Positions 36,457-54,075 of a stretch of 64,000 nt of DNA are shown here, one piece after another (positions within the stretch are counted from its first letter, which is position 1; every line of letters starts with the position of its first letter). Made by a program: the position numbers and the translations under genes. The notes beneath the pieces are model-generated. The model saw only the letters and a list, made by a program, of their open reading frames with translations. It searched no databases and was not told the DNA's origin. The stretch comes from Candidatus Calditenuaceae archaeon HR02 (GTDB lineage Archaea; Thermoproteota; Nitrososphaeria_A; Caldarchaeales; Calditenuaceae): NCBI GenBank assembly GCA_002898395.1, contig BEHE01000010.1, forward strand, positions 8,092-72,091, given 5' to 3'.

Positions 36457-36553
36457 ACTCGCATGCTACGCATAGCTAACAAATAGCTAGGGGTAATTTT
36501 CTAGCTCAACTAACATTACAATCACGCCACTATACAACTTAAATACAACATTT

Positions 36554-37579: not shown

Positions 37580-37584
37580 TATCC

Positions 37585-38595
37585 TTGACGATCCATATGA
37601 GGAAGGTTGGAGTGGGGGTAATCGGGCTAGGTGATTTCGGAGAAAGGCACGTACAGGCTATCAAAGCAATTCCATGGGCGGAGCTAATCGCGGTTTGTTC
37701 AAGGTCTGAGAGTAGGGCCAAAGAGGTGGCGCAAAGATACGGTGCGAAGAGATGGTATATTGATAGAAGAAAGATCGTGGAGGATGTGGAAGTAGACGTT
37801 GTTACAATAGCCACGGCTGACGATGACCATGCCGAACCCACCATACTAGCGAGTGAGGCGGGTAAACATGTTCTGCTCGAGAAGCCCATAGCTACAACAC
37901 TTGAAGATGCAGATAAAATCATATCGACTATTAAGAGTTCCGGTGTGATATTCATGGTGGGACACATTTTACGGTTCGACAGGAGATACAGGATGGTGAG
38001 GGAGATGAGACTGAGGGGCGAACTCGGCGAAATTATCTCGGTCTATGCCAGAAGAGTTGGCTCATCCCGCGCAGCCGAGAGATTTCTCAACAGAGTTTCA
38101 CCAATAGTCCAACACGGGATACATGATATAGACATCATCAGGTGGGTCTGGGGGAAGGAGGCAAAAAAAGTTTATGCAAATGCTATAAAGTTTAGAGAGT
38201 ATAAATATCCGGACGTCTTCTGGACCATTGTAGAGTTTGAAGGCGGTAAGGTCGGCGTAGTTGAGTGCGGTTTCATACTCCCAAATACATACCCACACTT
38301 CATAGACTCTTTCTTTGAACTTCTGTCGGAGGATGCAGCGATACACATATACACGCCTGGAGAATATTTCACCATCTATCATGATAAGCACTTATCTAAG
38401 CCTGACGTGACATACTGGCCCCAATTAAACCAGTATGCAGAGGGCGCGCTAAAAGATGAGATCGAGTACTTCTTACGATGTGTTGTGAGTGGGGTGCAAC
38501 CTGACCTCATAGCCCCAGAAGATGCGAGAAGAGCCCTAGAGATAGCCTTAGCAGCGGAAAAATCCGCTCTAGTTGGATCAACTGTGATGCTCTAA
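37585..38595 (+). CDS. Gfo/Idh/MocA-family NAD(P)-dependent oxidoreductase
   Basis: N-terminal Rossmann motif VGVIGLGDFGERH and the EKP motif (LLEKPIATTLEDA). Confidence 0.7.
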   Translation: MTIHMRKVGVGVIGLGDFGERHVQAIKAIPWAELIAVCSRSESRAKEVAQRYGAKRWYIDRRKIVEDVEVDVVTIATADDDHAEPTILASEAGKHVLLEKPIATTLEDADKIISTIKSSGVIFMVGHILRFDRRYRMVREMRLRGELGEIISVYARRVGSSRAAERFLNRVSPIVQHGIHDIDIIRWVWGKEAKKVYANAIKFREYKYPDVFWTIVEFEGGKVGVVECGFILPNTYPHFIDSFFELLSEDAAIHIYTPGEYFTIYHDKHLSKPDVTYWPQLNQYAEGALKDEIEYFLRCVVSGVQPDLIAPEDARRALEIALAAEKSALVGSTVML

Positions 38596-38739
38596 ACGTA
38601 TACAATGTAGCGGAGATGCTCTTGTATAGTAGTATCCTCTAACCCACTGTTATGAACTTTAGGTAAATTTGTTACATCTATGTTTAAGACTATGGTGTGG
38701 ATTAAACTTATCTCCTAGTGGAACATAGGCTTAACTGAG

Positions 38740-39483
38740 TTGAGAATAACTAGAGAAATTTACATGGTGGGAGATGGGAAGCGAGGGCTATCTCACCCAC
38801 TAGATTGTTGCATATACCTAGTAGATTGTGGCGGGATATATGTCTTGATCGATGCCGGTGTTGGATTAGATAGCCCGCGTATACCTGATAACATAGTTAG
38901 CGAGGACATTAGTCTCGACAAGGTTCGGCACCTATTCGTAACCCACGCCCACTCAGATCATGCTGGAGGTGCAAAATACTTCCAAGAGAACTTGAGTATC
39001 GAGGTTTTAGCACCTTCAATAGAATCAGAGATAATGTCTGCTGGAAGCGATGAGGAGCTTGGATTAAACATGACTCGCGGGTCCATATATCCTCCTGAAT
39101 ATAAATTCATGCATTGTAAGCCCGATAGGGTGCTGGTTGATGGTGAAGAGATTAAGATTGGAGGGAAAACCTTTAAACTGATTCAGGTTCCGGGGCACTC
39201 GCCGGGCGCTTCTTGTATCCTAGTTAAAGAGGAAAAGACCCTCTTTTCCGGCGATGTGGTCTTCCATGGCGGTACTATAGGCCTAGGTAATTGGCCTGGA
39301 TGTAGCCTAGATGAGTATAGGAAGAATATTGGAAAGCTAGGGGGTCTAGGCATTAAGAAACTCTTCCCTGGACATTTTCTCTTCACACTCGACGACGGAC
39401 AAAAACACATCGATACGGCTATAAATAATCTAAAAGGGCCATGGATACCCCCCGCGTGGCAGCATAATCATCCACATTACTAG
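38740..39483 (+). CDS. MBL-fold metallo-hydrolase
   Basis: HAHSDHAGG (HxHxDH) motif and downstream His/Asp ligands. Confidence 0.7.
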   Translation: MRITREIYMVGDGKRGLSHPLDCCIYLVDCGGIYVLIDAGVGLDSPRIPDNIVSEDISLDKVRHLFVTHAHSDHAGGAKYFQENLSIEVLAPSIESEIMSAGSDEELGLNMTRGSIYPPEYKFMHCKPDRVLVDGEEIKIGGKTFKLIQVPGHSPGASCILVKEEKTLFSGDVVFHGGTIGLGNWPGCSLDEYRKNIGKLGGLGIKKLFPGHFLFTLDDGQKHIDTAINNLKGPWIPPAWQHNHPHY

Positions 39484-39511
39484 GAAGACTCATCCTTTTT
39501 GGGAGGGTAGG

Positions 39512-39988
39512 CTAGATGTAGCGTGGGTGCCATTCTACACCTTCCCAGCTCACCAAACTCCTAGGAGTCACTCTAATCAGATATCGTGGCCGATTCAACG
39601 TGGGGGTAAGATATTCTGGTCCTCTCTCACCCAGATATCTCAGGGCCATCTTATTTGCGATCTCAACCCACCTGCCACCAACAATGGGCCCCTCAACTAT
39701 CTCTGCAAGCCCCTCCACAAGAACCCGTGTATAAGGTGGGTCGTCTCTGCTTATCTGTACCGCCACCCGCGGATCGTTCTTGATGTGTTCAACCCACACC
39801 GATTTTGCACGGGCGACAAAATAAAAATACGGCTCCTCGTAATAGAACCATGCAGGAACTATGTAAGGCGATCCATCCTTTTTTAAAGTCGCAATCCTAG
39901 CAATATATGGCTTTGCCAAAAACTGGGAAAGCTCCTCTTTAGTTAGACCACGCATCTTACCCATCCATTGGGGATACTTATCTCCCAT
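39512..39988 (-). CDS. PNPOx-like FMN-binding split-barrel protein
   Basis: 158 aa. A GSPYIVPAWFYYE pattern typical of pyridoxamine-5'-phosphate-oxidase-like/F420-binding split-barrel proteins. Confidence 0.45.
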   Translation of the reverse strand: MGDKYPQWMGKMRGLTKEELSQFLAKPYIARIATLKKDGSPYIVPAWFYYEEPYFYFVARAKSVWVEHIKNDPRVAVQISRDDPPYTRVLVEGLAEIVEGPIVGGRWVEIANKMALRYLGERGPEYLTPTLNRPRYLIRVTPRSLVSWEGVEWHPRYI

Positions 39989-40683
39989 CGAATATCATCT
40001 ATTCGGCTTTGTATATTAAAATTTCCTCTATAAGAGCAGGGTTATAACATCTTTAAGATACAAGCTCGTTTCTCAGCTATGTGGTCGAAAGAGTTTAATA
40101 TCTTGGTGCGCGGAGTTATGGGATAATTTTTATTGTAGAATTAATTACTTCAGAAACTATTCACGTGGTGAGATATATAAGAAGGGTGGATAATTGAAAC
40201 TAAGCGTAATACCGTGACATTTAAATGTATATAACTGGTTTTAAGAATCTTGCTCGGTACTGCCGAGTTAAGTCTGCCCATTCCTTGATCCATCTCTCAG
40301 ATATCTTGGGTTTGTAAGTAGAGAAGCACGTATTGAATTATTTTATCTTCCCATGACACAATCGAGGAGATGAGAAGATGCCGAAGACGTGTTAGAATGC
40401 CCCAGCTGGCCCCTCTCTAGACCGTTATTCTCCATTATCTTCGGGCCGCTGGCATAAGGAGAAAGGGAATGGAGTCCGATGCCAATGTCAGCTCGCTGGT
40501 CATGCTATTCGCGTTACTGGAAGAACCTCTTTATTGCGTCCTGATCTCTTCGCGGTGATCGATGTGGGTCAGTAGGTTGCAGGAGTCTGAGGAGGAATGG
40601 TCTTATGGGCCTTAATCCTATGTACTCCCTGCAGGAAGTGCGGGATTCGTCACGAGGGAGATTCTCCGAAGGTTCGGTAAGTC

Positions 40684-41340
40684 TCAGGAGAGGTAACCCT
40701 GCGTGGCTATGTAGCTCCTGACCATCCTCCTCACCCCCCTCCTGATCATGACGGAGAGCGATGCAGGTGATAATCCGAACTCCCTAGCTGCTTCGCGGAT
40801 GGAGACCTTTCTAGGGACGTCGAAGTAGCCCATCTCCAGTGTCCTCATTATCACGTTTAGCTGGGGGGACAAGATCTCGCTATGGCCCTCGAGCTCGACG
40901 CACTCGGTCAGCTCCGCTTCTTCTCCCCTCTCTCTCAACGCCTCTAATATCTTAGGGACCTCTCTATCCGTAGCGACGAATGTCCAGAACAGTTTCCCCT
41001 CCTTAACCCTGTACTCCCCTCTTTTCATCAGACACCTCTTTGCCACGACGCCGCACAAATCACACTTACTCGATCTCACCAGTCCTGAGACAGAGCTGTT
41101 CGGCTTGTTCGGTCTGACGAAGACAATTTCATCGACGTTCATCGACTTCTTGAGAATGCTCATTACCTTCGAGGACGTCATACTATTTCCTGTCTTTATG
41201 AGGAAGAGGTGTGTTATCGATCCGTCGTCGTTTTGGATGCAGTCCAGAATACTTATCGATTTCACACCACACCCCACGATATCTCTAGCCCATGCGGTCA
41301 GTGGGACTTTTAAAGCAACCGTGACCCTCTTTAAAGTCAA
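40684..41340 (-). CDS. HTH_10 (Bat/DmsR-like) transcriptional regulator with Cys-rich N-terminal domain
   Basis: C-terminal LEMGYFDVPRKVSIREAAREFGLSPASLSVMIRRGVRRMV matches the bacterio-opsin-activator HTH_10 domain. The N-terminal domain carries CDLCGVVAKRC (C-x2-C-x6-C). Confidence 0.55.
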   Translation of the reverse strand: MTLKRVTVALKVPLTAWARDIVGCGVKSISILDCIQNDDGSITHLFLIKTGNSMTSSKVMSILKKSMNVDEIVFVRPNKPNSSVSGLVRSSKCDLCGVVAKRCLMKRGEYRVKEGKLFWTFVATDREVPKILEALRERGEEAELTECVELEGHSEILSPQLNVIMRTLEMGYFDVPRKVSIREAAREFGLSPASLSVMIRRGVRRMVRSYIATQGYLS

Positions 41341-41459
41341 GGCTGACTCCTTTTAAAATAGCGGACCCTTGAAATATAACTTAATGTATTCAAGTGTGTG
41401 CGAATGCATACAAATGTATACAAGATCCTGGTGAAATGTGGTGTATAGGGGACTATCGG

Positions 41460-42284
41460 TCAGAGGTCGCCTTTGGAGAACGTGAGCATCGCTATTAAAG
41501 TGCAGGCGGTTCCGATGGCGATCTGGGAGCCGATAAGCACGGATGCCAGGGTTTCGCCGAACTCCCTCTGGATGAAGGCTCCGAACTCTCCTAGGAGCGA
41601 CATCGAGGGGTCGAAGGTCTTCACAATAACGAGCCTCGAGGCTTGGACGGGGTTGGCCAGCAAGAGGGGGGTGACGTCCAACGGACTTAGGTTGAGGAGG
41701 ATGACCGCCGCCATTAGGACGACCTCATAGACCATCACGAGGCCTATCCAGACTCCGAGGGAGAGGGCCAAGGCCGCGAACCTGCTCCTAACGAGGGAGG
41801 AGATCAGGAGACCTATGCCGGCAAAGGAGTAGGCCAGCACGATCGATGCCCACAGTATACTTAGGTAGATCAAGAGGTCTGTCTCGGAGACGAGGAGCCA
41901 TAGGAGCCAAGACGCGAGGCCGTAGCCCAAGACGATAGCAGCCGATATCGAGACTACATTTGATACTAGTCTGCTGAAGACTATCTCCCACCTTGAGGTC
42001 GGGAGCGAGAGCAGAAATTCCATCGTTCCCTTCTCCCTCTCCGATACTAGTGAGAGAGAAGAGGCTATGACCGCTGCTAATGGGACTGCATAAAGGTTCA
42101 GGTTGATGATCCCGGCTATTGCGGCGCTATAGGCCCTGAAGCCGACCTCTCCGAGGCCTAGGGCCCCTAGATAGGAGAAAGCCGAGCCTAATCCGGCGAA
42201 GGAGATTGAGAAGCCGTAGAGCCACCTGCTGCGGAGCGCGGAGATTAGGTCGCGCTTCAAAAGCAGAAGGACTGTAGCCTTCAT
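41460..42284 (-). CDS. nosY: ABC-2-type permease, NosY-like
   Basis: 274 aa, 6 TM segments, directly downstream of and 4-nt overlapping with the nosF-like ATPase in the nos cluster. Confidence 0.55.
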   Translation of the reverse strand: MKATVLLLLKRDLISALRSRWLYGFSISFAGLGSAFSYLGALGLGEVGFRAYSAAIAGIINLNLYAVPLAAVIASSLSLVSEREKGTMEFLLSLPTSRWEIVFSRLVSNVVSISAAIVLGYGLASWLLWLLVSETDLLIYLSILWASIVLAYSFAGIGLLISSLVRSRFAALALSLGVWIGLVMVYEVVLMAAVILLNLSPLDVTPLLLANPVQASRLVIVKTFDPSMSLLGEFGAFIQREFGETLASVLIGSQIAIGTACTLIAMLTFSKGDL

Positions 42285-43105
42285 CCTCCCACGAACTTCA
42301 ACAGCTCCTCAGCATCAGGCTCCTCTATCCACGCATTCCGGAGATCCTTTCCACTCTCCTGAAGCTCTGTAAGGGTAGCGAAGAGGTCCTCGGTCCTGTA
42401 TGTGGTCCAGCCATTATCACTCTTCACATGTACCTTGTAGACCGGTCTCAGGGTCCTCAGCACGTCCTCTGAATGGTAGACGCCTACCATTCTCCCCTCC
42501 TTCAGGACCACTATCTTCTCGAAGGCCGTGATCAGGCCGCTGATGTTGTGAATGCTTACGATCAGACTCTTCCCCCCTCTCATCATCTCCCTCATCATAT
42601 CGTGAACCGTGTTCCTCATCATGGGGTCGAGGTTGTTGAATGGCTCGTCCATGATTATCAGTCTAGGGTTTCCAATCAGTGAGAGCGCGATGGCGAGCCT
42701 CTGGCGTAGGCCGCCCGAGAGTGACCCGACCGGGCTGTTGACGGTGTCCATCAGCCCGAAAGGGCTGAGGGTCTCCTCCAGCGTGATGTCGACCCCCTTC
42801 ATGTCGGATACGAAGTCAACGAGGTCGTAGACCGTCATCTCCTCGGGGAACCTGACCTGCTGAGGAACGTACCCGACCATTCTCCTGACATCCTTCCCCT
42901 TCTTCCTGACATCGAGACCCATTACCATCACTTCGCCCTCGAAGTCGATTAAACCCAAGATGCATCTTAGGAGTGTGGTCTTGCCGGCACCGTTAGCACC
43001 CATTACCAGCACTGATTCCTTGAGCCCGAGCTCGAGGTAGATCGAATCCAGAGCCACGTTCTCTCTGAAGCGCTTCGTCAGGTTCCTGACCTCTATCGCC
43101 TTCAT
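42281..43105 (-). CDS. nosF: ABC ATPase NosF-like
   Basis: Walker A GANGAGKTT, signature LSGGLRQR and Walker B IIMDEPF. Position between nosD and nosY. Confidence 0.7.
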   Translation of the reverse strand: MKAIEVRNLTKRFRENVALDSIYLELGLKESVLVMGANGAGKTTLLRCILGLIDFEGEVMVMGLDVRKKGKDVRRMVGYVPQQVRFPEEMTVYDLVDFVSDMKGVDITLEETLSPFGLMDTVNSPVGSLSGGLRQRLAIALSLIGNPRLIIMDEPFNNLDPMMRNTVHDMMREMMRGGKSLIVSIHNISGLITAFEKIVVLKEGRMVGVYHSEDVLRTLRPVYKVHVKSDNGWTTYRTEDLFATLTELQESGKDLRNAWIEEPDAEELLKFVGG

Positions 43106-44427
43106 CGCCGGCTCGCCGCGATGGCGGCAGCCACGGGTGGGAGCGTTAGCGCTAAAGCAGCAGCTAGCCAGACTGATGACCCTGCATTGACTGTTGGTCT
43201 GAGGGCATTGGGTGACTTGGCTGGGAACTCGTCAATCGCCTTGACGGAGGATCCGAGCCCGCTTAGCGACCTAGAGGTCTTGATTGCTGAGAATCCAGGT
43301 CCGTAGGCGAAGGCCCAGAGCACCGGCCATCTATCTAAGAGATCTTCGACCGTCGACTTGGCGAGGTACTTCTCGCCGATCTGGAGGCCTCTATCGCTCC
43401 AGAAGTTCCTCATCCAAAGGCTCGTGGCCGAGGGCGTTAGGAGAGATATCTGCTGGGCGTTCTCGACTAGGTCGTTCCTCTCGAAGACCGCCGAAGCCCA
43501 GCCGTCAAATCGTACCCCAACGTTATTGAAGGCTATGACGTTCATCCTGAAGCGAAGGCCACCCTCCCTAGGATATGGGGAGTTGACTACGTGGAGGCCT
43601 ACCGCGTTGCCGACGACCAAGTTGCGCTCGAGATAGACATCGGACGACTCCCTAATGAATATCCCCTCGCTGACCGCAAGGCCTCTATTCTCCCTAACGG
43701 TGTTGTTGGTGACCATCAATCTGAATGAGTACATCAACGCCATGCCCACTAGGTTCCCACGTATCACATTCCGATCGATGACATGGCGCGCCGAGTACAT
43801 CAGGTGTATCCCATATCTTGAGCCGAATATCTCATTCGCCATCACTGTGACATTATATGAGTGGTCTGAGTAGACGCCGTCCTTGACGTTCTCAATCCTG
43901 TTCTCTGAGACCCCAACCCCTACCGAGTACCAAAGGTAAACTCCATGTCCCCTATCGTTGACCGATCTCTCGGGGAAGCTCGTCAGGTGGTTTTTGGTGA
44001 CCTTCACGTCCGTAGAGTTGACGACGTAAATTGCGTGGATCACGTTCTCTATCCGGTTACCAGTAATTGTGACGTTCCTGCTGTTGACGATCTTAATTCC
44101 AGCAGGCTCGAACGCCACATCGGGAAAGGAGTTTATGATCCTGAAGCCCTCGAAGATGACGTCATCCGCCTTGATAACGACCACATCACCAGACCCTTTT
44201 CCGTCTACCACAACGTCACCCGCCCCCTTGAGCGCAAGTGGCTTCCATATCCTTATGGGTCCCGCGTAGATTCCCGGCGGAGCCGGTATCGTCGAGTAAG
44301 GTTCGGCGGAATCGATTAGCGATTGGAGATCGGAGATCTGGTGTTTTTCTGGGTAAGCCATGTCGGGAGCGGACTGGACAAGCAAAAAGGTCGTTAAGGA
44401 TATGAGAAGGAATATTGTGTGTAGCAT
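43102..44427 (-). CDS. nosD: NosD-like periplasmic right-handed beta-helix protein
   Basis: 441 aa. N-terminal signal, and repeated about 22-aa units (N-x-I/V-x-x-N...GI.L...) typical of the NosD/CASH beta-helix. Context between nosL and nosF. Confidence 0.65.
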   Translation of the reverse strand: MLHTIFLLISLTTFLLVQSAPDMAYPEKHQISDLQSLIDSAEPYSTIPAPPGIYAGPIRIWKPLALKGAGDVVVDGKGSGDVVVIKADDVIFEGFRIINSFPDVAFEPAGIKIVNSRNVTITGNRIENVIHAIYVVNSTDVKVTKNHLTSFPERSVNDRGHGVYLWYSVGVGVSENRIENVKDGVYSDHSYNVTVMANEIFGSRYGIHLMYSARHVIDRNVIRGNLVGMALMYSFRLMVTNNTVRENRGLAVSEGIFIRESSDVYLERNLVVGNAVGLHVVNSPYPREGGLRFRMNVIAFNNVGVRFDGWASAVFERNDLVENAQQISLLTPSATSLWMRNFWSDRGLQIGEKYLAKSTVEDLLDRWPVLWAFAYGPGFSAIKTSRSLSGLGSSVKAIDEFPAKSPNALRPTVNAGSSVWLAAALALTLPPVAAAIAASRR

Positions 44428-44431
44428 CGCA

Positions 44432-45034
44432 TCAGCTCGCTTTCCTTAAGGTCACTAAACCGATGGCGATGGCGGCCATCATGAGACCGATTGAGAGCCC
44501 GAAGTAGCTGCGGACCGTAATGTTTGCTATCCTATACTCTCCCAAGAACGGGGGGTCGAAGGGCTCTATCTTGATCGGTGCGTCTGGATGAATCGTGTGC
44601 GTGAACCTGTAGAGCCATATGTAGACGAAAGTGAAGAGGCTGATCACCAATGCTGCCAGAAGGATGAGCAAGACCGGCGCCGACTTCCTCCGTCTGGTTG
44701 AGACGGAGAAGCTGTAGGCTGCAGTCACAGCGATCACAGAGGCGTAGAAGTATGGCAGATAAGATATCTCAGGTACGTGTTCGTTGCCGATCATGCTGAG
44801 CCCAACGTAGTGGTTTATGACGTTGACGTCGTTCACAGCTCCCTGTATGCCGCTGAGTGGATAGATGGTGACCTCAGGCCACTTCTGTCCGAAAAACGGG
44901 GCGTTGAATTGGAAGTGCCAGAGGGGGAAGAAGATAGACATGGCTACGAGAAGAAGCGGTACAGCTGAGGCCGCTGCAAGGATGAATCCGCGCTTTTGCA
45001 TGCACATCACCGGAACCTGCTGAGCATGGACCAA
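44432..45034 (-). CDS. hypothetical membrane protein embedded in nos operon
   Basis: 200 aa, about 4 TM helices with a large extracytoplasmic loop (HYVGLSMIGNEHVPEISYLPYFY). No family recognised. Translationally coupled within the operon. Confidence 0.4.
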   Translation of the reverse strand: MVHAQQVPVMCMQKRGFILAAASAVPLLLVAMSIFFPLWHFQFNAPFFGQKWPEVTIYPLSGIQGAVNDVNVINHYVGLSMIGNEHVPEISYLPYFYASVIAVTAAYSFSVSTRRRKSAPVLLILLAALVISLFTFVYIWLYRFTHTIHPDAPIKIEPFDPPFLGEYRIANITVRSYFGLSIGLMMAAIAIGLVTLRKAS

Positions 45035-45489
45035 AAGTCCATCACCTCTCCTTGAAACCTCTCGGCCAGGTTTTCGGCCTCCCCTCGCGACCCAACGGCC
45101 ACCACGCCGTAGCTCATGGGCGTCCAGAGGTTCTTGGGGTCAGCTAGGACGTAGTAAGCTCTTTGCGCATCCAGTTCCTCCTTCGAGATGTAGTCGAAGA
45201 CCCTGGCATCGGCTACAGTTTTACCGGCAGATAATAGGTCGTTGTAATCGCTCGCGAAGCAGCCTACGTCGTCGTAGAAGCGCCATCTTTGCTCGCCTTG
45301 GAGAAGTAGTCCAGCCGCGAACTCGAGCCTGCTGATGAACATCCCACACCTCCTGCATCTGTCCTCACCCAACCTGATCTGAAGACGTGGAGCCACACCT
45401 ATACGCCACTGCAGCGCGATCGCGGCTGCGGCGCCCACCACGGCGACCCCACCTAGCGCAATAAGAAAGGCCCTGCGCTTCATGCTCAC
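45007..45489 (-). CDS. nosL: NosL-like copper chaperone lipoprotein
   Basis: 160 aa. N-terminal signal, and a CRRCGM motif (C-x2-C-x-M) typical of the NosL Cu(I) site. Position next to nosD. Confidence 0.5.
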   Translation of the reverse strand: MSMKRRAFLIALGGVAVVGAAAAIALQWRIGVAPRLQIRLGEDRCRRCGMFISRLEFAAGLLLQGEQRWRFYDDVGCFASDYNDLLSAGKTVADARVFDYISKEELDAQRAYYVLADPKNLWTPMSYGVVAVGSRGEAENLAERFQGEVMDFWSMLSRFR

Positions 45490-45953
45490 GGCAGTACGTT
45501 GATCACGGCTCCCTTATGCGGGTGAAGTGTGCAGTAGATGTTGTACTCGCCTGGGGTCCTGAAGGTGTACCTGAAACTCGCACCAGGATTGATGGGACCA
45601 GAATCGAAATCCGCCGGCGCCTTCCCCTTCATAGTAGTGAAGGTGTGCGGGGTCTCATCCTCGTTGACGTATTCGATGGTGTCCCCCACGTTGAGCGTCA
45701 CTCTGCTGGGGTTGTAGTACTTGTCGCTTATGGTCGGTGGATCTCCAAGCTTCCACCCCTCCGGGGGGAGATATGAGCCTTTCTGGCTGACGATCCTAAC
45801 TACCTTACCCTGCCTCGGCGCTGCACCCCCTCCCAGCATACCTGAAGCGAAGATGGCTCCAACCACTGCTGCCACCACGATTACCACCACAACAGCAGCA
45901 ACGAGAGTCCTGCCCGCCAATCCAACCACCTCAAAGATAATTGGGTTGGGCAC
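45486..45953 (-). CDS. membrane-anchored type-1 copper (cupredoxin) protein, probable electron donor to NosZ
   Basis: 155 aa. N-terminal TM anchor. Cupredoxin ligand pattern H(ETPHTF)...YNIYCTLHPH, but the usual axial Met after the second His is absent. Confidence 0.55.
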   Translation of the reverse strand: MPNPIIFEVVGLAGRTLVAAVVVVIVVAAVVGAIFASGMLGGGAAPRQGKVVRIVSQKGSYLPPEGWKLGDPPTISDKYYNPSRVTLNVGDTIEYVNEDETPHTFTTMKGKAPADFDSGPINPGASFRYTFRTPGEYNIYCTLHPHKGAVINVLP

Positions 45954-45976
45954 GTTATAAATGCGTGGTTAACGTG

Positions 45977-48028
45977 TTAATCGGGCTCAACCTCAAGCCA
46001 CCCAGCCATCTCTAGGTGTAGTGGCGAGCAGAACTCGACGCAGTAGAAGCAGAACACGCCTGACACGTCTGCGACGAACTCTACTGTAGTTGTCTCGCCG
46101 GGCTCGACGCTGGCCATCACGTTATACTCGCTGACAGCGAACGCGTGGGTTGCGTCCTTCGTCGTCTCCACGTTCGTCAGGTGTATCCTCACCAGATCGC
46201 CCTGCTTCACCCTGATGATGTCGGGCGTGATCGTGCTCCTAATGAGGGTGGCGTAAACCTCGGTCACCCACTTCCCATTCTCCTGCTTCCTCTCGATCCT
46301 CTCCTGGCCCTTCTTAATGGCGTACGGGCTGACCTCGAAGGTCTCGGGATCGAACCCCACCGGCGAGTAGACCTCCCACGGCTTCAGCTTCGTCGTGAGG
46401 ATCATCTTGGCGTAGTGTGGCTCGCCGATTCCGATCGGCATGTCGTAAAGGAGCTCCATCTTGTCTCCGGAGATGTCGATCAGCTGGAAGTTCTGCGGCA
46501 GCAGCGGCCCCACGTCAACGAACCTGTCAACCGACCACTTGTTCAGGGCGATGAGGTACTTCCCCTTCGGCGAAGGCGAGTTGCTCTCAGTGGTGCAGAT
46601 GTGTCCGACGTTGTAGTGGATGGGTATCTCGCCGATTTTAGTGAAGGGCTTGTCTCCGGTATAGTCCGGAGGCCCGAGCGTGTACTGGTCCACGGTGTTC
46701 CCGATGAAGCAGCTCACGTACCCGCGCCCCTTGTCGTCGAACTCGTTGTGCAGGGGGCCGAGGCTCGTCTCGATCTGCGCCGCCTTGACGTCCTCGAACC
46801 TGAGGACCGGTACGCCGTACCTGTCAGTCCCCGCGAACCTCTGGTTCCTGATGGCGTCCTTGATCTTCTCGACGTCGTAGATCGTCACCGCTGGCGCCAG
46901 CTTCCCTCCTATAACGACGTACCTGCCGCTGGGAGAGATGTCGCAGCCGTGCGGACTCTTGGGCTCAGGAGCGAAAAAGAGGACGCCCTCCTTGGCAGCC
47001 ACATCGAGCGGCACCGCCTTAATCCCGTTCATCTCGACGTACTTACCCTGCCTGACCAGCTCCTCAGCCCTCTTCCAGTTGATGATGTGGAGGTAGTCGA
47101 AGTCGTTCTTGGAGGCACCGACCTCCAGCGACGGCTTACCCTCCAGAACGCCCCCTATGTGGAGCTCCGTGTTGATGGAGTTCATGAAGGCCCAGCCGTC
47201 GCTCGGCCCCCATCCGACGACCTCAAGGTCCTGCATGTACGGCGGAAGCTCGATCTGGAAGCTCCTGCTCAGGTCGAACCTACCGGTCTTCCTGTCAAAG
47301 GCGATGAAGTTGGCTGTACCCCTGAAGAACTCCTCGAAGTTCTTCTCGGTGAGCTTGATGTAAGTCTTCCCGGGCTTATATCCCTTGCCCGGCTCCCATG
47401 GCGCTGGGAACTGGCTGCCACATGCCACGTACTCGGTGTTCGGCGTCGCGCATGCTCCTCCGTGCTGGGTCTGGGTGTTAGGGAGCTTCACGATGTCCTT
47501 CGTCTCGAAGTCCCTGAGGCTGATCGAAGCTATTCGGGCGTTGAGCTTGTCGCCGATGAAGGCCCACTCGCCGTCGTACTCCGCATTCGTCCTGCTGATC
47601 TCCGGATGGTGCGTGTCGCCCAGCGTCAGGAGTCTGATGCCGTTAGATCCCTTGTAGAGGAGCTTCATTGTCTTGACGTCTCCGTATCCGTAACCCTGCC
47701 AGGGCTCGGGCGTGAAGACCGCGATGACCTTGAGGAGCCTCATCGAGGGTACGCCTATCACTAGGACCTGACCCGAGTGGCCGCCCGAGGAGATCATGAG
47801 GAACTCGTCCTTCCATCCTCCAGGGACGTATGTCTTCAGGGCGGCCCTAGCGTGGATCAGTTCGAGCTTCCTCTGCTCGATTATTTCGACGAGCTCCTTC
47901 CCTAGCGGGGGTGCCGTCGGCGTGAGGAGTCTTCCCCCCGTGAAGCCGGCCGCGGCCCCGGCCACTAGTCCGGCACTGAGAACTGATAGGAACTTCCTCC
48001 GGCTGCTGTTAGACTTAACTACGCCCAA
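45977..48028 (-). CDS. nosZ: nitrous-oxide reductase NosZ (TAT-dependent, clade I type)
   Basis: 683 aa. Twin-arginine signal SRRKFLSVLSAGLVAGAAAG. Beta-propeller His ligands. C-terminal CuA motif H...CFYCVEFCSPLHLEM. TTG start preceded by a GGTGA Shine-Dalgarno. Confidence 0.85.
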   Translation of the reverse strand: MGVVKSNSSRRKFLSVLSAGLVAGAAAGFTGGRLLTPTAPPLGKELVEIIEQRKLELIHARAALKTYVPGGWKDEFLMISSGGHSGQVLVIGVPSMRLLKVIAVFTPEPWQGYGYGDVKTMKLLYKGSNGIRLLTLGDTHHPEISRTNAEYDGEWAFIGDKLNARIASISLRDFETKDIVKLPNTQTQHGGACATPNTEYVACGSQFPAPWEPGKGYKPGKTYIKLTEKNFEEFFRGTANFIAFDRKTGRFDLSRSFQIELPPYMQDLEVVGWGPSDGWAFMNSINTELHIGGVLEGKPSLEVGASKNDFDYLHIINWKRAEELVRQGKYVEMNGIKAVPLDVAAKEGVLFFAPEPKSPHGCDISPSGRYVVIGGKLAPAVTIYDVEKIKDAIRNQRFAGTDRYGVPVLRFEDVKAAQIETSLGPLHNEFDDKGRGYVSCFIGNTVDQYTLGPPDYTGDKPFTKIGEIPIHYNVGHICTTESNSPSPKGKYLIALNKWSVDRFVDVGPLLPQNFQLIDISGDKMELLYDMPIGIGEPHYAKMILTTKLKPWEVYSPVGFDPETFEVSPYAIKKGQERIERKQENGKWVTEVYATLIRSTITPDIIRVKQGDLVRIHLTNVETTKDATHAFAVSEYNVMASVEPGETTTVEFVADVSGVFCFYCVEFCSPLHLEMAGWLEVEPD

Positions 48029-48077
48029 CCTTCACCACATCCTTCCAACATTATCGATTTAGCGGATAAAGAAAAGT

Positions 48078-48101
48078 ATGTGTTTAACATGTTAGACACA
48101 T
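48078..48101. promoter_or_regulatory. 24-bp near-perfect palindrome ATGTGTtTAACATGTTAgACACAT about 60 nt upstream of nosZ start; candidate operator/activator site
   Basis: 11 of 12 symmetric pairs are complementary. It lies upstream of a TTTATC TATA-like element in the nosZ promoter region. Confidence 0.5.
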
Positions 48102-48290
48102 CTTAAGGAGCACCCTATTCTTTCCCTCACACCGTGTTTCCCCCGGCATCAACCTAGAGTATACGATATCACTGAAGATAGATATTACCACGACCTCTGA
48201 ATTCTTAGCGTTGAAGACCCGGTCGACTAAATTAAAACAGAGTGCGTAGTATTGGGTTCGAGATTATGTATTTTTCATCCTTTTTCTCCA

Positions 48291-48688
48291 CTACCCTTGT
48301 TTTATCAACGTTTCTAGGAGGCGTGATAGTTGTGCATTTGGGATTGACCTGTTCTCCCATAGCTCTACAGCACGTTTAATATCTGACCATCTCACATTAC
48401 CCTTAATTATGGCTCTCAAAATCTGTTTGTAATGTCGTGAACGGTGGAATAGGTGGGATAATTCGCTTTTAACCATCGCCATTGCCTCCGCCAAAACAGC
48501 CTCTAGAAGATTCTCATCAACTCTTTTTTCATGGATGCTCTATATCCGAAATAGGTTAACCATCCCACGACTTTGTCCAGAACATCCATGGTCCTTCGCA
48601 ACACATTTTCATCGGGGTTTATGCCTTGCTCCCTAAAGCCTTCTCTGAGGAAGCGGAGGGACTTTTCACTGCTAAACTTTTCAAGCAC
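48291..48688 (-). pseudogene. frameshifted remnant of an archaeal AAA+ ATPase (Arch_ATPase/DUF234 C-terminal region)
   Basis: Two adjacent short ORFs carry ...VVGWLTYFGYR... and ...VRWSDIKRAVE...LSRLLETLIKQG, resembling the C-terminal wHTH/DUF234 part of COG1672 ATPases. No Walker motifs remain. More ORF-poor debris extends to about 49640. Confidence 0.4.
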
Positions 48689-49647
48689 TATTTCTTCTCT
48701 GACTCTGCGTGCAGCGGGCTTTCAGGGTCATCGGCTCCTATAAAATCCATCAGCAGGCCGACCTCGAAGCCAGTGAGATGGGACCTGATGCGTGGGAGAT
48801 TGTCGTGTGAATAGGTTGATGACGCTCCTGAAATCTAATAAAGCGCCGACGAGGGAAGAGCTTAGGAAAATAGTTATGGCAGCGGACTTGAGAGGAGAGG
48901 CCTTATTAACGATGTTCCGTCAAGCGAAATGGGAATAGGAGAGCTTCTAAGCCTAAGGGTTAAAGATGTAGACTTCAACAAGAGGCTAAGGTGCAAAGTT
49001 TTTATGTCCTAGTGTGATGAGTGCCCCCATAATATTGTGTAGAGCGCTATGCCTAGCTGAAAACAGGCATGAGAGCTTAGCAACTATGCAGAAAGCAGAC
49101 AGATATGTATATGACCCAAGAAGACGTCTCTTCTAAAGGTTGGTCTGGATGAGGACGGACAGCCATATGTCTATTTGGACATGGGAGGAAAGGGAAGATC
49201 GAGCGTTATCGCAAACTGTCTTGGAGTTCAACTTTTTCATGAAGCTTTGCGCTCTTGATGTCGGCATCATTAAAATCAAACACTTCTTAACACCGTGGAC
49301 ATAATCCTTTATCGTGTGCGGAGCAATACCTATTCTGCTCAAGTAGCTTACAAACTCATCATAGGAGCTAGTATGGATCAGGCCTTCCTGCCTTTATTTC
49401 CCATAGTACATCGTTAGGTAGCCGTTTTTGAAGCTGCAGATGACGCATAAGGTAGTTAGCCTTACCTCCTTGGAGTTGGTGCTCTTAAACCTTCTATAAG
49501 TCTTCTCGAGGAAGCCTTTTATCTGTGCTTCTATCTTGTTTTTATGTTCCTTTCCTCACCGGTAAGCTTCTTGGTCTAGTATCTTCGTCTTCAATAAATA
49601 GAAACGAATTTTGCTTATAATATTTTATAAAAAGTCAAAGTATATAG

Positions 49648-51165
49648 CTAGATGTCGAAGTAGAGGTAGAATTCGTAGGGGTGTGGGCGTGCGGAGACCT
49701 GTGTGTGTTCTTTCAGACCGTTCTCTATTATTGTCTCTATGAGTTCGCTTGGGAATATGGGTTTTAGGAAGTCGTGGTCTGATTCAAGCTCTTCTATGGA
49801 CTCTCTGAGGCTTCCGGGGAGCTGCTTGATTCCAAGCTGCCTCCTCTTTTCAGGCGATAGCTTGTATATGTCCTCGTCGACTGGGTCTCCTATGTCGATC
49901 TTCTTCTTGATTCCGTCGAGTCCGGCAGCCATCATGGCTGCGAAGCAGAGGTATGGGTTGCATGATGGGTCTGGTGTCCTGAATTCGATTCTTTTCTTCG
50001 CGCTTGCGGCGCGGCCCCTGTGGTATACGGGTACTCTCACGTTTGCTGATCTGTTGCTTCTGCTCCAGGCTATGAAGACTGGGGCCTCGTATCCGGGTAC
50101 GAGTCTCCTGTAGCTGTTGGTTGTGGGTGCTACTATTGCGCAGAGGGCTCTGCTGTGCTCTAGTAATCCTCCTCCGAAGTATCTGCCGAGCTGGCTTAGC
50201 TCAGCGTAGTCATCATTCTCGTCGTAGAACAGGTTTTCATGACCATCTAGCTGTAGGATGGTGTGGCCGGGGTTTGACTTGGTCTTTCCGCTTCTCTGCC
50301 ATAGGCTGACGTGGGTGTGCATGCCTGATGCGTTGTCGCCAAAGATTGGTTTTGGCATAAATGTGGCGATCATTCCGCTCTTGGCTGCTAGGTTTTTGAC
50401 AACGAATTTGTATGTTATGGAGTTGTCTGCCATATTTGTGAGGGTGTCCCTGTACATGTCTATCTCACACTGCCCCGCTGTAGCTACTTCGTGGTGGTGG
50501 GCGTCGCAAGGTATGTGGAAATGATCCGAAAGTATATTGACGCACTCGGACCTGAAGACCATTAACGTGTCGTGGGGTGGAGCGGGGTAGTAGCCCTCCT
50601 TAAACCTGATGGGATAGTTGGTTCCTGCGCTACTCCAGGCCGCCTCCTTCGACTCAATGCTATAAGACTGTCCCCTGTAGGCGTCTAGGACGTCCCAGTG
50701 GACTTTGTCGAAGACGAAAAACTCGATCTCGGGCCCCCAGAAGGAGAGGTCATATCCCTGCTCAGCCGCATACATCTCCGCCTTCTGAGCAACATGGCGT
50801 GGGTCCTTCTCCAGCCTTCCACGCGCCATTCCCCAGCCGACATTGCATATCATCCTCGCGGTCTTCACATGGTCAGGTATCCATGGGATGATGGCATAGG
50901 TTGAGGGGTCTGGATATAGCACTAGGTCGGACTCGTGTATGTCTACGAATCCCCTGATAGATGAGCCGTCAAGCTTTGGGACGCCTGAGGAGAATGAATC
51001 CTCGTCAAGGAATTTGGCTGGAATCGTTACGTGCTGGAGCCTGCCCGGAACATCCGTGAACTGGAGGTCAATGTATTTTATGCCATCCCTTTCAACGCTC
51101 TCCAACACTTGGTCAAGGCCCATCCTCCACGGTACGAGTTCGCCGTTCTCAAAGACAAATGGCAT
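49648..51165 (-). CDS. glnA: glutamine synthetase
   Basis: 505 aa. GS signature region (DGSS...; ...MHTHVSLW...) and overall GS fold. Confidence 0.75.
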   Translation of the reverse strand: MPFVFENGELVPWRMGLDQVLESVERDGIKYIDLQFTDVPGRLQHVTIPAKFLDEDSFSSGVPKLDGSSIRGFVDIHESDLVLYPDPSTYAIIPWIPDHVKTARMICNVGWGMARGRLEKDPRHVAQKAEMYAAEQGYDLSFWGPEIEFFVFDKVHWDVLDAYRGQSYSIESKEAAWSSAGTNYPIRFKEGYYPAPPHDTLMVFRSECVNILSDHFHIPCDAHHHEVATAGQCEIDMYRDTLTNMADNSITYKFVVKNLAAKSGMIATFMPKPIFGDNASGMHTHVSLWQRSGKTKSNPGHTILQLDGHENLFYDENDDYAELSQLGRYFGGGLLEHSRALCAIVAPTTNSYRRLVPGYEAPVFIAWSRSNRSANVRVPVYHRGRAASAKKRIEFRTPDPSCNPYLCFAAMMAAGLDGIKKKIDIGDPVDEDIYKLSPEKRRQLGIKQLPGSLRESIEELESDHDFLKPIFPSELIETIIENGLKEHTQVSARPHPYEFYLYFDI

Positions 51166-51519
51166 GCCTTCGACACACCCCCACTAAGGAATTAGGCTGA
51201 GGAGTTGCCGCGGCCGCGTTGACTGTCTGTCCATCAATAAAGGCTACTTTGTGTCCATCTGCTACGATTTTTCCACGTCTTACCGTTTTATGGACCATCA
51301 TTTGGCGAATATTGGCTAATAAGTCATATTTAAACATGTCATTAGCCGAGGCGATAAATATTGAGTAAAGTAAACAATTTCTCCCCCAATCCGGGCATTC
51401 ATTAAACATTATTCAAATCGTGCTGACGTGTAATGCAGGCGCTCATGAGCCGAAGGTAAAACTCCTTTCGCTCTGCGCGGGAAGTAGATATTTAGGTGAG
51501 AGTACCTTAGTTTTCATCT

Positions 51520-53817
51520 GTGCAGTCAGCGGTCTATGTCGGTAAGCCTATTCCGCGGAAGGAGGATCTGAGGTTTTTAACAGGTAGGGGCAGGTTCATA
51601 GATGATATAAGTCTCCCGAGGATGCTCTATGCGGCCTTTCTTAGGAGCCCTTACGCCCACGCGAGGATAACTAGTATCGATGTATCTGGCGCACTTCAAA
51701 ACGGCGCGGTGGCCGCCTTCACCGGCCAAGAGCTTAACAAGATGTGTGGTGGCATACATCTAGATGTACCGCGGGGGCGGAAGGATTTTGTGGTTAAGCC
51801 TCTCGCAGAGGGCAAGGTTAGGTATGTTGGCGAGCCTGTCGCTGTTGTAGTTGCTAACGACCCCTACACCGCGCGGGACGCTCTGGAGTACATTAACGTG
51901 GATTACGAGAGGCTTGAGCCGGTTGTGGATCCTCTTGAGGCTTCTAAGCCCGGTGCGCCTATCATACACGATGATTTCCCGGACAATATCTGCTTTACTA
52001 GGAAGCGTGTCTATGGCGATATCGAGGCGGCCTTCAGGGAGGCCGACAAGGTCGTTGATGTCCAGTTGAGGATACAGCGGCTTGTCCCCTCTGCGATGGA
52101 GTGTCGTGGTGTGGTGGCCATTTTTGACGAGGGTGTCGGATACCTGAGGATCTGGGCCACTAAACAATTCCCGCACGACTTTCGAGGCTGGACGGCAGAG
52201 GCCCTCGGAATATCTGAGTCGAAGATTCATGTTATAGCGCCAGACATAGGCGGGGCATTTGGCTCGAAACTCGAGCACTACCCTGAAGATGTAGTGATTC
52301 CCCTCTTAGCTAAATTGCTTGGACGGCCTATAAAGTGGATTGAGACGCGTAGTGAGAACTTCCACTCCACAACTCATGGAAGGGGTAGTGCGGCTTGGGT
52401 TGAGGCGGCCGTGAAGAATGACGGCAGGCTACTCGGGGTTAGAGCTAAGATCTTGACAGATCTCGGCGCCTATCCATACTTCTCCACGATACAGGTTCCC
52501 GAGGGGATTGTCGGGATGTTGCCGGGTTGCTATAAGCTGAGAGGCTTGGAGGCTGAGGTAACTGGCGTCTTCACCAATAAAGTTCCAACGGCGGCGTATA
52601 GGGGTGCGGGCAGGCCAGAGGCCTCATACATTATTGAGCGGACTATGGATAGAATTGCGAGAGAGCTGGGAATCGACCCAGCCGAGGCTCGGAGAAGAAA
52701 TTTCATCAGGCCAGAGGAGTTCCCCTACGAGACAATAACCGGCCACAAGTATGACTCTGGGAACTATGAACAAGCGCTTAACAAGGCGCTCAAGATTGTG
52801 GGCTATGAGGAGCTCAGGCATAGACAGTCAGAGCTAAGGGCTGCTGGGAAGCTGCTGGGCATAGGAATCTCAAGCTACATCGAGGTATGTAACTTTGCCC
52901 CTACCCCCGCTATAGTGAGTGTGGAGAAGGATGGGAGGGTCAAGGTGGTATCTGGAACGCTGCCGCACGGTCAGGGCGAGGAGACTGCATTCGCCCAGAT
53001 AGCTGCTGACGCGTTGGGTGTGGATATAAAAGATGTCGACGTCATATTTGGAGATACTTCTCTAATCGGGTGGGGGCCGGGGACAGCGGGTAGCTGGACA
53101 CTAGCGTCCGGCGGTAATGCGGTCCTACAAGCTTCTATGAAGGTGAGAGACAAGATATTGAGACTTGCAGCCCACATGCTGGAGGTTAGGCCCGAGGACT
53201 TGGAGATCGTTGACGGCAAGGTTGGAGTGAAAGGCGTCCCAGAGAAGTCCGTGAAGATTAAGGAGGTCGCTGCCCTAGCGTATGACCCTTCAGGACTGCC
53301 TGCCGGTATTGAGCCTGGACTCTCTGCAGAGGTGGGCTACAGTCCACAGCTGACGTATCCATTTGGGACGCATGTGGCCGTAGTCGAGATTGATTTGGAG
53401 ACGGGAAGGGTAGAGGTGAAGAGGCTAGTGCTTGTCGATGACTGTGGAAGGGTTGTTAACCCGCTTCTAGTTGAGGGGCAGGTAATTGGCGGGGCGGTCC
53501 AGGCCCTAGCTCAAGCCCTCTACGAAGAGGCTTTCTTTGATAGTGATGGAAACCTAGTCAACTCCAACTTTGGGGACTATCTTATTCCTACTGCCGTCGA
53601 GATACCTGAAATCCAGACGGAGAGGACCGAGACGCCTGCCCCTAACCCGCTGGGGGCAAAAGGTGTCGGGGAGGCTGCGACAATAGGCTTGACACAGGCC
53701 GTGGTAAATGCTGTTGAGGATGCACTCGCACCGCTCGGTGTAAGGGTAGTGGATACGCCGCTAACACCCTACCAGGTTTGGCGCATAATACGGGAAAAAC
53801 TCCCGAAATCGGGTTGA
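51520..53817 (+). CDS. molybdopterin-dependent hydroxylase large subunit (CoxL/XdhA/aldehyde oxidoreductase family)
   Basis: 765 aa. N-terminal GRGRFIDDI, a mid-region active-site loop (GAFGSK), and C-terminal dimerisation motifs of the xanthine-dehydrogenase family. No adjacent small or medium subunit genes. Confidence 0.7.
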   Translation: MQSAVYVGKPIPRKEDLRFLTGRGRFIDDISLPRMLYAAFLRSPYAHARITSIDVSGALQNGAVAAFTGQELNKMCGGIHLDVPRGRKDFVVKPLAEGKVRYVGEPVAVVVANDPYTARDALEYINVDYERLEPVVDPLEASKPGAPIIHDDFPDNICFTRKRVYGDIEAAFREADKVVDVQLRIQRLVPSAMECRGVVAIFDEGVGYLRIWATKQFPHDFRGWTAEALGISESKIHVIAPDIGGAFGSKLEHYPEDVVIPLLAKLLGRPIKWIETRSENFHSTTHGRGSAAWVEAAVKNDGRLLGVRAKILTDLGAYPYFSTIQVPEGIVGMLPGCYKLRGLEAEVTGVFTNKVPTAAYRGAGRPEASYIIERTMDRIARELGIDPAEARRRNFIRPEEFPYETITGHKYDSGNYEQALNKALKIVGYEELRHRQSELRAAGKLLGIGISSYIEVCNFAPTPAIVSVEKDGRVKVVSGTLPHGQGEETAFAQIAADALGVDIKDVDVIFGDTSLIGWGPGTAGSWTLASGGNAVLQASMKVRDKILRLAAHMLEVRPEDLEIVDGKVGVKGVPEKSVKIKEVAALAYDPSGLPAGIEPGLSAEVGYSPQLTYPFGTHVAVVEIDLETGRVEVKRLVLVDDCGRVVNPLLVEGQVIGGAVQALAQALYEEAFFDSDGNLVNSNFGDYLIPTAVEIPEIQTERTETPAPNPLGAKGVGEAATIGLTQAVVNAVEDALAPLGVRVVDTPLTPYQVWRIIREKLPKSG

Positions 53818-53865
53818 AGTAATACTTTCGTATTATTCTAAATAAGTTGATGCAAATGTTTATAT

Positions 53866-53873
53866 AGGGGACC
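53866..53873 (+). promoter_or_regulatory. TATA box (TTTATATA) for the downstream ncRNA
   Basis: Perfect archaeal TATA about 20-25 nt upstream of the first G of the GC-rich structured element. Confidence 0.45.
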
Positions 53874-53885
53874 ATAATTTCTTAT

Positions 53886-54075
53886 GGAGCGGGGCGCCCG
53901 GGATAGGGGAGATCCGAGAGGCGTCAGGGAAACCTGGCGTCTCTGGGAGCCTCCAGTCTCGTGGACCCAACGGGAAACCGTGGGCAAAGGGATTGGAGAG
54001 GGTGCTCACGGTGTGCGTGGGGCCTAGGGGTCTAACACGCACGTCGCGCGCCCTCCCCGAAAGGCGCCCCGTCTA
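53886..54075 (+). ncRNA. structured GC-rich ncRNA (about 190 nt; class unassigned; candidate minimal RNase P RNA or other stable RNA)
   Basis: Terminal helix GGGGCGCC/GGCGCCCC. Two GAAA (GNRA) hairpins with 12-bp and 7-bp stems. A third 8-bp hairpin (UGUGCGUG/CACGCACG) whose loop GGGUC can pair with GACCC in the junction, a possible pseudoknot. The segment has sharply higher GC than the flanks, no protein-like ORF, and its own TATA box. Confidence 0.5.

Follow-up and report, generated by a model that had tools for sequence, protein, structure and literature searches.

Here we describe a nitrous-oxide reductase (nos) gene cassette in a 64,000-nucleotide stretch of DNA (hereafter the window, to which all coordinates refer) on contig BEHE01000010.1 of the thermophilic, hot-spring archaeon Candidatus Calditenuaceae archaeon HR02. 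This host belongs to the Caldarchaeales (formerly Aigarchaeota), within the Nitrososphaerota, and not to the crenarchaeal, Thermoprotei-like archaea to which an initial annotation, made from the sequence alone, had likened it. The cassette consists of 8 open reading frames (ORFs) in a single orientation, on the minus strand, spanning 48028-40684, which encode in order NosZ (45977-48028; 683 amino acids, TTG start, identical to GBC71360.1), a cupredoxin (45486-45953), the copper chaperone NosL (45007-45489), the membrane protein NosB (44432-45034), the beta-helix maturation protein NosD (43102-44427), the ATPase NosF (42281-43105) and the permease NosY (41460-42284) of the NosDFY ABC complex, and an HTH_10 regulator (40684-41340). 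Families were assigned by Pfam and NCBIfam profile scans of the cassette ORFs. The same series, with matching coordinates, had been read in the initial annotation, which described the genes as lying on one strand with 4-nucleotide overlaps; the strand is right, and such overlaps exist at 3 junctions (cupredoxin/nosL, nosD/nosF and nosF/nosY), the remaining junctions from nosZ through nosY being a 23-nucleotide spacer, a 4-nucleotide gap and an overlap that depends on the start chosen. A further spacer of 119 nucleotides separates nosY from the regulator gene. Judging from the reading frames, the eight-gene cluster is complete and apparently intact, and its content bears out the earlier view of a self-contained nos module with a cupredoxin and a regulator of its own.

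The NosZ sequence scored 734.9 bits against TIGR04246, the profile of the Sec-dependent clade II enzymes (cut-off 625), compared with 356.7 bits for the clade I and 174.8 bits for the clade III profile, and by this measure it is a clade II enzyme. Its N-terminus (SSRRKFLSVLSAGLVAGAAAGF) contains the twin-arginine translocation (Tat) motif SSRRKFLS at residues 8-15, followed by a hydrophobic stretch, in agreement with the Tat-substrate consensus S/T-R-R-x-F-L-K, and the Sec-type signal usual for clade II NosZ was not found there. The pattern [ST]RRxF[LI] is present in 36 of the 36 closest NosZ homologues, all of archaeal type and 54-94% identical. The next group of sequences comes from thermophilic bacteria (Thermoflexus, Armatimonadota, bacterium HR37) and carries Sec or lipoprotein signals; matches to an RR expression in bacterial N-termini, such as MSRRSLAV or GCRRAAAT, were not accepted as Tat motifs. 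Exceptions to the rule that associates Tat and nosR with clade I, and a Sec signal plus nosB with clade II, are known, notably in archaea or Chloroflexota (PMC11409646), and a clade II NosZ with a Tat signal and nosB is a documented archaeal variant rather than a new one. The nos module is therefore of a known kind, a clade II cluster in its archaeal Tat plus nosB form. The initial annotation had proposed placing NosZ in the clade I/clade II tree; the profile scores give clade II despite the Tat signal, a combination on which it had not remarked.

To map the metal ligands we aligned NosZ to solved clade I enzymes (5i5i) and to about 120 homologues. All 7 CuZ histidines are present (H140, H141, H189, H360, H427, H476 and H538) and every CuA ligand is kept (H628, C663, C667, H671 and M674), these positions being near-invariant across the aligned homologues. 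The mapping is supported by a constant offset of +45 between the ligand positions here and what we take to be the numbering of the P. stutzeri enzyme. The Tat signal and the intact CuA motif reported earlier are thus confirmed, and the loss of CuZ histidines, which would have pointed to a non-functional paralogue, was not seen. On the opposite strand, a 539-amino-acid ORF (46145-47764, plus strand) runs antisense to nosZ; we do not regard it as a gene, but as the stop-free shadow of a gene whose GC content at third codon positions (GC3) is 0.83, conserved only where nosZ is.

Among the maturation genes, nosL barely exceeds its Pfam cut-off (24.5 against 24 bits), and a jackhmmer search connects it with NosL genes at the end of bacterial nos clusters, in more than 40 loci. 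Its product has an RR-containing N-terminal signal or anchor and, as in NosZ, no lipobox is found at the N-terminus. The next ORF, of 200 amino acids with about 4 transmembrane segments, had been noticed before only as a membrane ORF and gave no Pfam or NCBIfam match in the family scans. We compared it by single-pass phmmer with all ORFs of 81 nosZ loci, where it matched the ORF at the same relative position in every Caldarchaeales locus, the ORF directly 3' of nosZ in Campylobacter showae (E about 1e-16) and, in more than 60 bacterial loci of clade II, the ORF that follows nosZ (best E-values 1e-16 to 1e-20). By these matches the membrane ORF is NosB, a hallmark of clade II that the initial annotation had missed; in HR02 the gene lies 2 genes downstream of nosZ, and its true start is probably 10-12 codons downstream of the called one. 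The conserved positions of the protein (NHYxG, E89, H146 and PFxP) fall in two outward loops. Published accounts place nosB, which encodes a transmembrane protein, directly downstream of clade II nosZ and describe it as missing from clade I (PMC11409646, PMC11096178), and N2O respiration in Wolinella is reported to depend on it (Hein et al. 2017, cited in PMC11409646). NosD matches Pfam NosD (E=1e-36) and reaches 268 bits with TIGR04247, below the subfamily cut-off of 300, and it combines a Sec signal with a C-terminal hydrophobic membrane anchor. Across all Caldarchaeales nos loci, nosF (ABC_tran) is conserved in position and sequence and nosY (ABC2_membrane_2) in position.

The cupredoxin, which matches Pfam Copper-bind and Cupredoxin_1, is a plastocyanin/amicyanin-like, type-1-like protein anchored by an N-terminal transmembrane helix. 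Its His-Cys-His ligands (His in TPHTF, Cys and His in YCTLH) are kept in all aligned homologues, and in the alignment the axial position is a Lys (CTLHPHKG) where more distant homologues, as well as plastocyanin and amicyanin, carry Met. The closest solved structure is PDB 5fc9 (E=2.5e-11); its loop likewise lacks Met, with an Arg at that position, and we take the protein to be Nmar_1307, the "purple cupredoxin" of N. maritimus. An axial water and the oxidation of nitric oxide (NO) have been reported for Nmar_1307 (PMC12109610, PMC6790972). As regards other electron carriers, no CXXCH haem c motif was found in any ORF of at least 90 amino acids in the 64-kb window, and the cassette ORFs include no NosG, NosH, NosC1, NosC2 or cytochrome c domain. 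Neither nosR nor nosX is among the cassette ORFs, all of which were assigned to other families, the rest of the genome having been left unsearched. With no haem c motif in 64 kb and neither NosGH nor NosR, the cupredoxin of the operon would be the obvious donor to CuA, and it is the presumed electron donor to NosZ.

The last gene of the cassette encodes a regulator of 218 amino acids, of the Bat/NarO/DmsR type, with a C-terminal HTH_10 domain (PF04967, residues 160-205, 39.5 bits against a cut-off of 23.1; E=5e-10). Its 4 cysteines, C34, C93, C96 and C103 (C-x58-C-x2-C-x6-C), are kept in 6 homologues, including those of the comparison loci L001, L003, L005, L089 and L091, even the Caldarchaeum ones. 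In haloarchaea, the Bat-family HTH proteins NarO and DmsR regulate anaerobic respiration (PMC11218638); an HTH_10 gene accompanies nos in every Calditenuaceae locus. Upstream of nosZ we found a zero-mismatch palindrome, TGTTTAACATGTTAGACA (48081-48098), whose near end lies 53 nucleotides and whose centre lies about 62 nucleotides from the start codon, directly followed by a TATA-like CTTTT(A) element. Its 16-bp core, GTCTAACATGTTAGAC, recurs with at most 2 changes at -60 to -71 in all Calditenuaceae loci but L093, where it lies at -18 of an extended start call and at about -60 if counted from the probable start. The Caldarchaeum-type loci L003, L005, L007 and L011 have it as well, and Pelearchaeum has CCTAATATGTTAGG at a similar position upstream of nosZ. 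The palindrome is thus conserved in relatives, at about -60 to -70, within intergenic DNA that otherwise cannot be aligned. By analogy with NarO and DmsR, we propose that the four-cysteine HTH_10 regulator binds GTCTAACATGTTAGAC as a candidate operator.

Two further elements were observed in the cassette. A weaker copy of the operator with 3 mismatches, CGATTAACACGTTAACCA (45966-45983), straddles the nosZ stop codon, 13 nucleotides before the longest-ORF (GTG) start of the cupredoxin gene; its TAAC..GTT core is kept in Calditenuis, and it may mark an internal promoter. In the promoter of the HTH_10 gene (41385-41425), 3 direct TGTATRCAT-like repeats (tgtatacat, tgtatgcat and tgaatacat) precede a TATTTTAAAA box and may form an autoregulatory site, distinct from the nosZ palindrome.

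It could be argued that such a cassette is a relic, or that it has a role other than N2O respiration, for instance in handling copper or in detoxifying NO by way of the Met-less cupredoxin. The window contains no nir, nor or quinol-oxidising module, and the structure nearest to the cupredoxin is presumably that of an NO-oxidising protein, both in line with such an alternative use. Moreover, N2O reduction could not be demonstrated in cultured Thermoflexus, which has a NosZ of the sister type (PMC9270275). Against this, all 8 ORFs are intact with every metal ligand kept, operator and regulator are conserved, and NosZ is 78-94% identical across families and therefore under strong purifying selection, so that we consider a relic or another purpose very unlikely and continue to read the cassette as a functional-looking one, probably for N2O respiration.

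A scan of one genome per species located the nos cluster in at least 11 species-level Caldarchaeales genomes and in one Ferroglobus metagenome-assembled genome (MAG). The nosZ product of HR02 is itself already deposited, as GBC71360.1 on a contig of 78,975 bp, the same sequence is present in the Logan assembly of DRR101361, and the gene was reported in 2018 (PMC5877337). Work of 2013-2015 had described N2O reductase genes unaccompanied by other denitrification genes in single-cell genomes and MAGs of Caldarchaeales (cited in PMC9270275), and nos was reported again for C. fumarioli and Pelearchaeum (PMC10547907). The rarity of nosZ, which the initial annotation had stated for Thermoprotei-like archaea, accordingly does not hold for the order of this host. 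NosZ nests in the Calditenuaceae/Caldarchaeales clade, with HR02 inside the Calditenuaceae, and at the level of the order its phylogeny tracks taxonomy; an import into a normally nos-free archaeal group is therefore unsupported, and, given the nesting, the cassette is no import from bacteria or haloarchaea.

Within the family, the position of the cassette in HR02 is peculiar. The GlnA, a CoxL-like protein and a type II secretion system (T2SS)-type ATPase of the window have relatives of at least 90% identity on a contig of 1.55 Mb (GCA_041641295.1) and in two further assemblies. These 3 assemblies (L082, L083 and L084) are independent of one another and represent a relative that shares about 86% nucleotide identity with HR02; in blastn they are collinear with the window, at 79-87%, on both sides of the cassette (24873-26611, 30377-37569 and 49648-61222), and collinearity breaks at 37569 and 49648. 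The variable segment of 12.1 kb between these points (37570-49647) has in the relatives a counterpart of only 1.14 kb with no nos scar and an unrelated ORF. No NosZ from the 1.55-Mb contig appeared among the top protein-search matches, and from these top matches the relative seems to have no nosZ. The ORF at the syntenic site (L083:11630-12358) encodes a His-rich, multi-pass membrane protein of 242 amino acids with a HGHLHGDFEGGVHGHEHEHPGGIRHTHPH loop and no Pfam match, which looks like a metal transporter.

In HR02 the cassette lies between glnA and the gene of a PALP enzyme. The same 8 genes in the same order are found in Ca. Calditenuis (L001, L002 and L085-L091), at another genomic location, with radical-SAM and KaiC-like genes on one side and tmk, MoxR and CoxE-VWA genes on the other; the island proposed earlier thus recurs in the Calditenuaceae, without the flanks seen in HR02. 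Overall, the eight-gene set occupies at least 4 genomic contexts across the loci, adjoining [NiFe]-hydrogenase and COX1 genes in L092. In two more distant Calditenuaceae-type contigs (L093 and L094), nosZ-HTH_10 is divergent from cupredoxin-nosL-B-D-F-Y, and the two halves share one short intergenic region with the palindrome.

Composition sets the cassette apart from its surroundings as well, as the initial annotation had suggested examining: its 8 genes have a GC3 of 0.67-0.83 (mean 0.72; nosZ 0.83), compared with 0.41-0.68 (mean 0.55 +/- 0.07) for the 49 other genes of the window (Mann-Whitney p=7e-6). Calditenuis has a genome GC content of 0.61 and a GC3 of 0.8-0.9 in nos and flanks alike, and in Caldarchaeum, Pelearchaeum and Scotarchaeum, too, the nos genes have the GC3 of their flanks, leaving HR02 as the sole mismatching locus. 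These data bear on the main rival to an acquisition, in which an ancestor of the Calditenuaceae already had the cassette beside tmk, and the cassette was then relocated within the genome of the HR02 lineage and lost in the sister. Such vertical inheritance would accord with the broad agreement between NosZ phylogeny and Caldarchaeales taxonomy, with HR02 falling within the Calditenuaceae clade, with the position of HR02 as outgroup to all Calditenuis for nosD, nosF, nosY and the HTH gene, as a separate lineage predicts, and with the failure to find mobility genes or repeats. But a long-resident cassette should show host composition, and here GC3 departs from the background, in contrast to every other Caldarchaeales locus; the sister site holds an unrelated gene and no nos scar; and both a relocation and a complete loss are required. 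We therefore judge ancient vertical presence followed by relocation and sister loss to be unlikely, and favour acquisition of the cassette by the HR02 lineage.

The flanks offer a further trace of such an acquisition. Beyond the regulator gene, a 695-bp gap (39989-40683) that had been described as non-coding contains a decayed thymidylate-kinase (tmk)-like remnant (40448-40690, plus strand). With the Tmk of L091 as tblastn query, it gives 58% identity over 24 amino acids and 71% over 14 (summed E=6e-7), in 3 collinear frame-shifted pieces on the expected plus strand (AGIRRKGMESDANVSSLVMLFALL against AYIRRRGIEADVDVSELVRLFEAL; LLRPDLFAVIDVGQ against VLRPDLYVVIDVGE), and it is the top match to the Tmk hidden Markov model in the six-frame window. 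The remnant ends about 10 nucleotides inside the 3' end of the HTH_10 gene, in a convergent overlap like that of the intact tmk in Calditenuis, and it is most likely a piece of the donor's neighbouring gene, carried in with the cassette.

On the nosZ side, the decayed-gene debris noted earlier (48029-49647) contains a pseudogene; the protein it once encoded was of the archaeal ATPase_2 kind and had a winged helix of the MCM_C type. The pseudogene fragments (48306-48813, minus strand) gave 3 collinear blastx pieces to L003:3745-4896 (E=1e-19), a protein that matches Pfam ATPase_2 and MCM_C, and a 67-amino-acid ORF in the debris matches MCM_C (E=1.5e-8). An origin from the 242-amino-acid ORF of the sister was ruled out, as the two are unrelated, and so was one from the 128-amino-acid ORF or from the KaiC-like gene, both upstream of Calditenuis nosZ, with neither of which there was a match. 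Both flanks reported in the initial annotation exist, and each contains the remains of a gene. At the other end of the variable segment (37585-39988), genes for a GFO/IDH/MocA oxidoreductase, a metallo-beta-lactamase fold protein and a PNPOx-like protein have a low, host-like GC3. As these 3 genes are also missing at the relatives' site, the 12.1-kb segment is composite, and they probably represent a separate indel. A second indel between HR02 and the relative is a sugar-type ABC transporter block at 26612-30376 (a 506-amino-acid solute-binding protein and 2 permeases, GC3 0.41-0.48), absent from L082-L084.

Sharp changes in composition at both ends of the cassette could also be produced by the misjoining of a nos segment from a co-occurring high-GC Calditenuis population into the HR02 contig, all the more because the source, a mixed metagenome of a bioreactor, included several Aigarchaeota MAGs (PMC5877337). 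However, contig L081, from an independent Logan assembly of DRR101361, is 100% identical over 44662-49971 and shows glnA, debris, nosZ, cupredoxin, nosL and nosB in succession, which excludes a binning or assembly chimera at the glnA/debris/nosZ junction; this assembly covers the right junction and not the left one (HTH_10/gap/PNPOx). The tmk beside the cassette is moreover decayed, unlike the intact tmk of real Calditenuis genomes. An assembly or binning artefact is thus extremely unlikely.

Taking together the empty site, the GC3 and the tmk remnant, we consider it probable that the cassette reached the HR02 lineage from a relative within the Calditenuaceae that is unsampled and higher in GC. 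Judged by the nesting of NosZ, this was an exchange inside the family and not one with bacteria or haloarchaea, and the acquired module of the initial annotation thus stands at the family level but not as an import into a group devoid of nos. With about the same confidence, the region as a whole is read as a functional-looking, copper-only clade II N2O-respiration cassette, most likely inserted into the HR02 lineage from a higher-GC, Calditenuis-like relative.

Several observations weigh against this reading. With respect to a classical island, the window contains no tRNA, no flanking direct or inverted repeats were found beyond chance, and no integrase, transposase or other recombinase is present among the ORFs of 37570-49647, the only region scanned for them. 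The cassette is only about 78% identical in nucleotides (60-94% in amino acids) to the sampled Calditenuis clusters, which points to a donor that has not been sampled or to an old event. Distances are also uneven from gene to gene, with nosZ, nosL and nosB nearest to C. fumarioli while for nosD, nosF, nosY and the HTH gene HR02 is placed outside every Calditenuis sampled, which hints at recombination in the cassette or at unequal rates. The GC3 of 0.67 in nosD, the cupredoxin gene and the HTH gene overlaps the top of the host range, and the single matches of the tmk remnant are each weak (11 bits; E=0.009 window-wide). Regarding function, N2O reduction by the Caldarchaeales cassette is read from sequence, the cupredoxin is a candidate donor, and the pairing of regulator and operator has the standing of a proposal.

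If these assignments are correct, the Tat pathway would carry NosZ to the outer side of the membrane, where Cu(I) would come from NosL and CuZ would be assembled by the NosDFY ABC complex, with the C-terminal helix of NosD as its anchor, by analogy with the functions of the bacterial proteins; NosB, the clade II-specific membrane protein, would also be required. The membrane-anchored, Met-less cupredoxin would hand electrons to CuA, replacing the cytochromes c and the NosGH or NosR of bacteria. The NosD anchor, the RR-containing N-termini of NosL and NosZ with no lipobox, and the transmembrane helix of the cupredoxin suggest that all Nos parts would be tethered on the outside of the membrane, in a cell that lacks an outer membrane. 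The four-cysteine HTH_10 regulator probably senses redox state or O2 and would bind the palindrome upstream of the nosZ TATA region. As to its origin, the cassette would have been inserted between glnA and the PALP-enzyme gene from a higher-GC Calditenuis-like relative, together with a piece of the donor's tmk.

[quoted passage not shown] We tentatively suggest, as an idea that may well not hold, that the eight-gene copper-only cassette (Tat-dependent clade II NosZ, a Met-less, "open-site" cupredoxin, NosB, NosL-D-F-Y and the four-cysteine HTH_10 regulator with its operator) moves as a unit between Caldarchaeales with no recognisable mobility genes, letting otherwise non-denitrifying hot-spring archaea scavenge N2O from partners such as Thermus. 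The HR02 nosZ being known, our additions are incremental: the identification of NosB, evidence, including a tmk scar, that the cassette relocates or is transferred within the family, a candidate regulator-operator pair, and an unusual, Met-less cupredoxin as candidate donor, all in a minimal eight-gene cassette with no haem proteins. They are useful for design rather than surprising, and provide targets for heterologous expression and for the reading of metatranscriptomes.

Among known systems, the clade II nos clusters of Wolinella succinogenes and Campylobacter (nosZ-B-D-G-C1-C2-H-F-Y-L) share with HR02 a NosZ above the TIGR04246 cut-off, the genes nosB, nosD, nosF, nosY and nosL, and the lack of nosR and nosX in the cassette. 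They differ in that HR02 has a Tat signal and no cytochrome c domain, NosC1/C2 or NosGH, adds the cupredoxin and the HTH_10 regulator, and follows the order Z-cupredoxin-L-B-D-F-Y. Some Chloroflexota (OLB14) combine, like HR02, a clade II sequence with a Tat signal and nosB (PMC11409646), but they are bacteria, and the nearest bacterial relatives of the HR02 enzyme (Thermoflexus, Armatimonadota and HR37) have Sec or lipoprotein signals. With the nos system of haloarchaea (Haloferax), HR02 has in common a Tat-exported archaeal NosZ, small blue-copper proteins as proposed donors (halocyanin or azurin in the haloarchaea), a Bat-family HTH regulator with no PAS or GAF domain, and a palindrome or semi-palindrome about 60-70 nucleotides upstream of the nos start codon; in contrast, haloarchaeal NosZ belongs to clade I, the motif there is CGAAYATDKTYG, and the HR02 regulator has only 218 amino acids and a four-cysteine pattern of its own. 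The cupredoxin resembles 5fc9, presumably of the Nmar_1307 type, in its C-x2-H-P-[HW]-[KR] loop with no axial Met, and is distinguished from it by its membrane anchor and by being encoded within a nos operon. Also close are the systems of the other Caldarchaeales (Ca. Calditenuis fumarioli, C. aerorheumensis-type OTU-1, Ca. Caldarchaeum, Ca. Pelearchaeum and Ca. Scotarchaeum), from which HR02 departs by its glnA/PALP site in place of the tmk/MoxR side, by a GC3 off that of the host and by its decayed tmk, and with which it shares the NosZ clade (70-94% identity), the Tat motif, the order nosL-nosB-nosD-nosF-nosY and the upstream palindrome, and, with the other Calditenuaceae, the identical set of 8 genes including the cupredoxin and the HTH_10 regulator.

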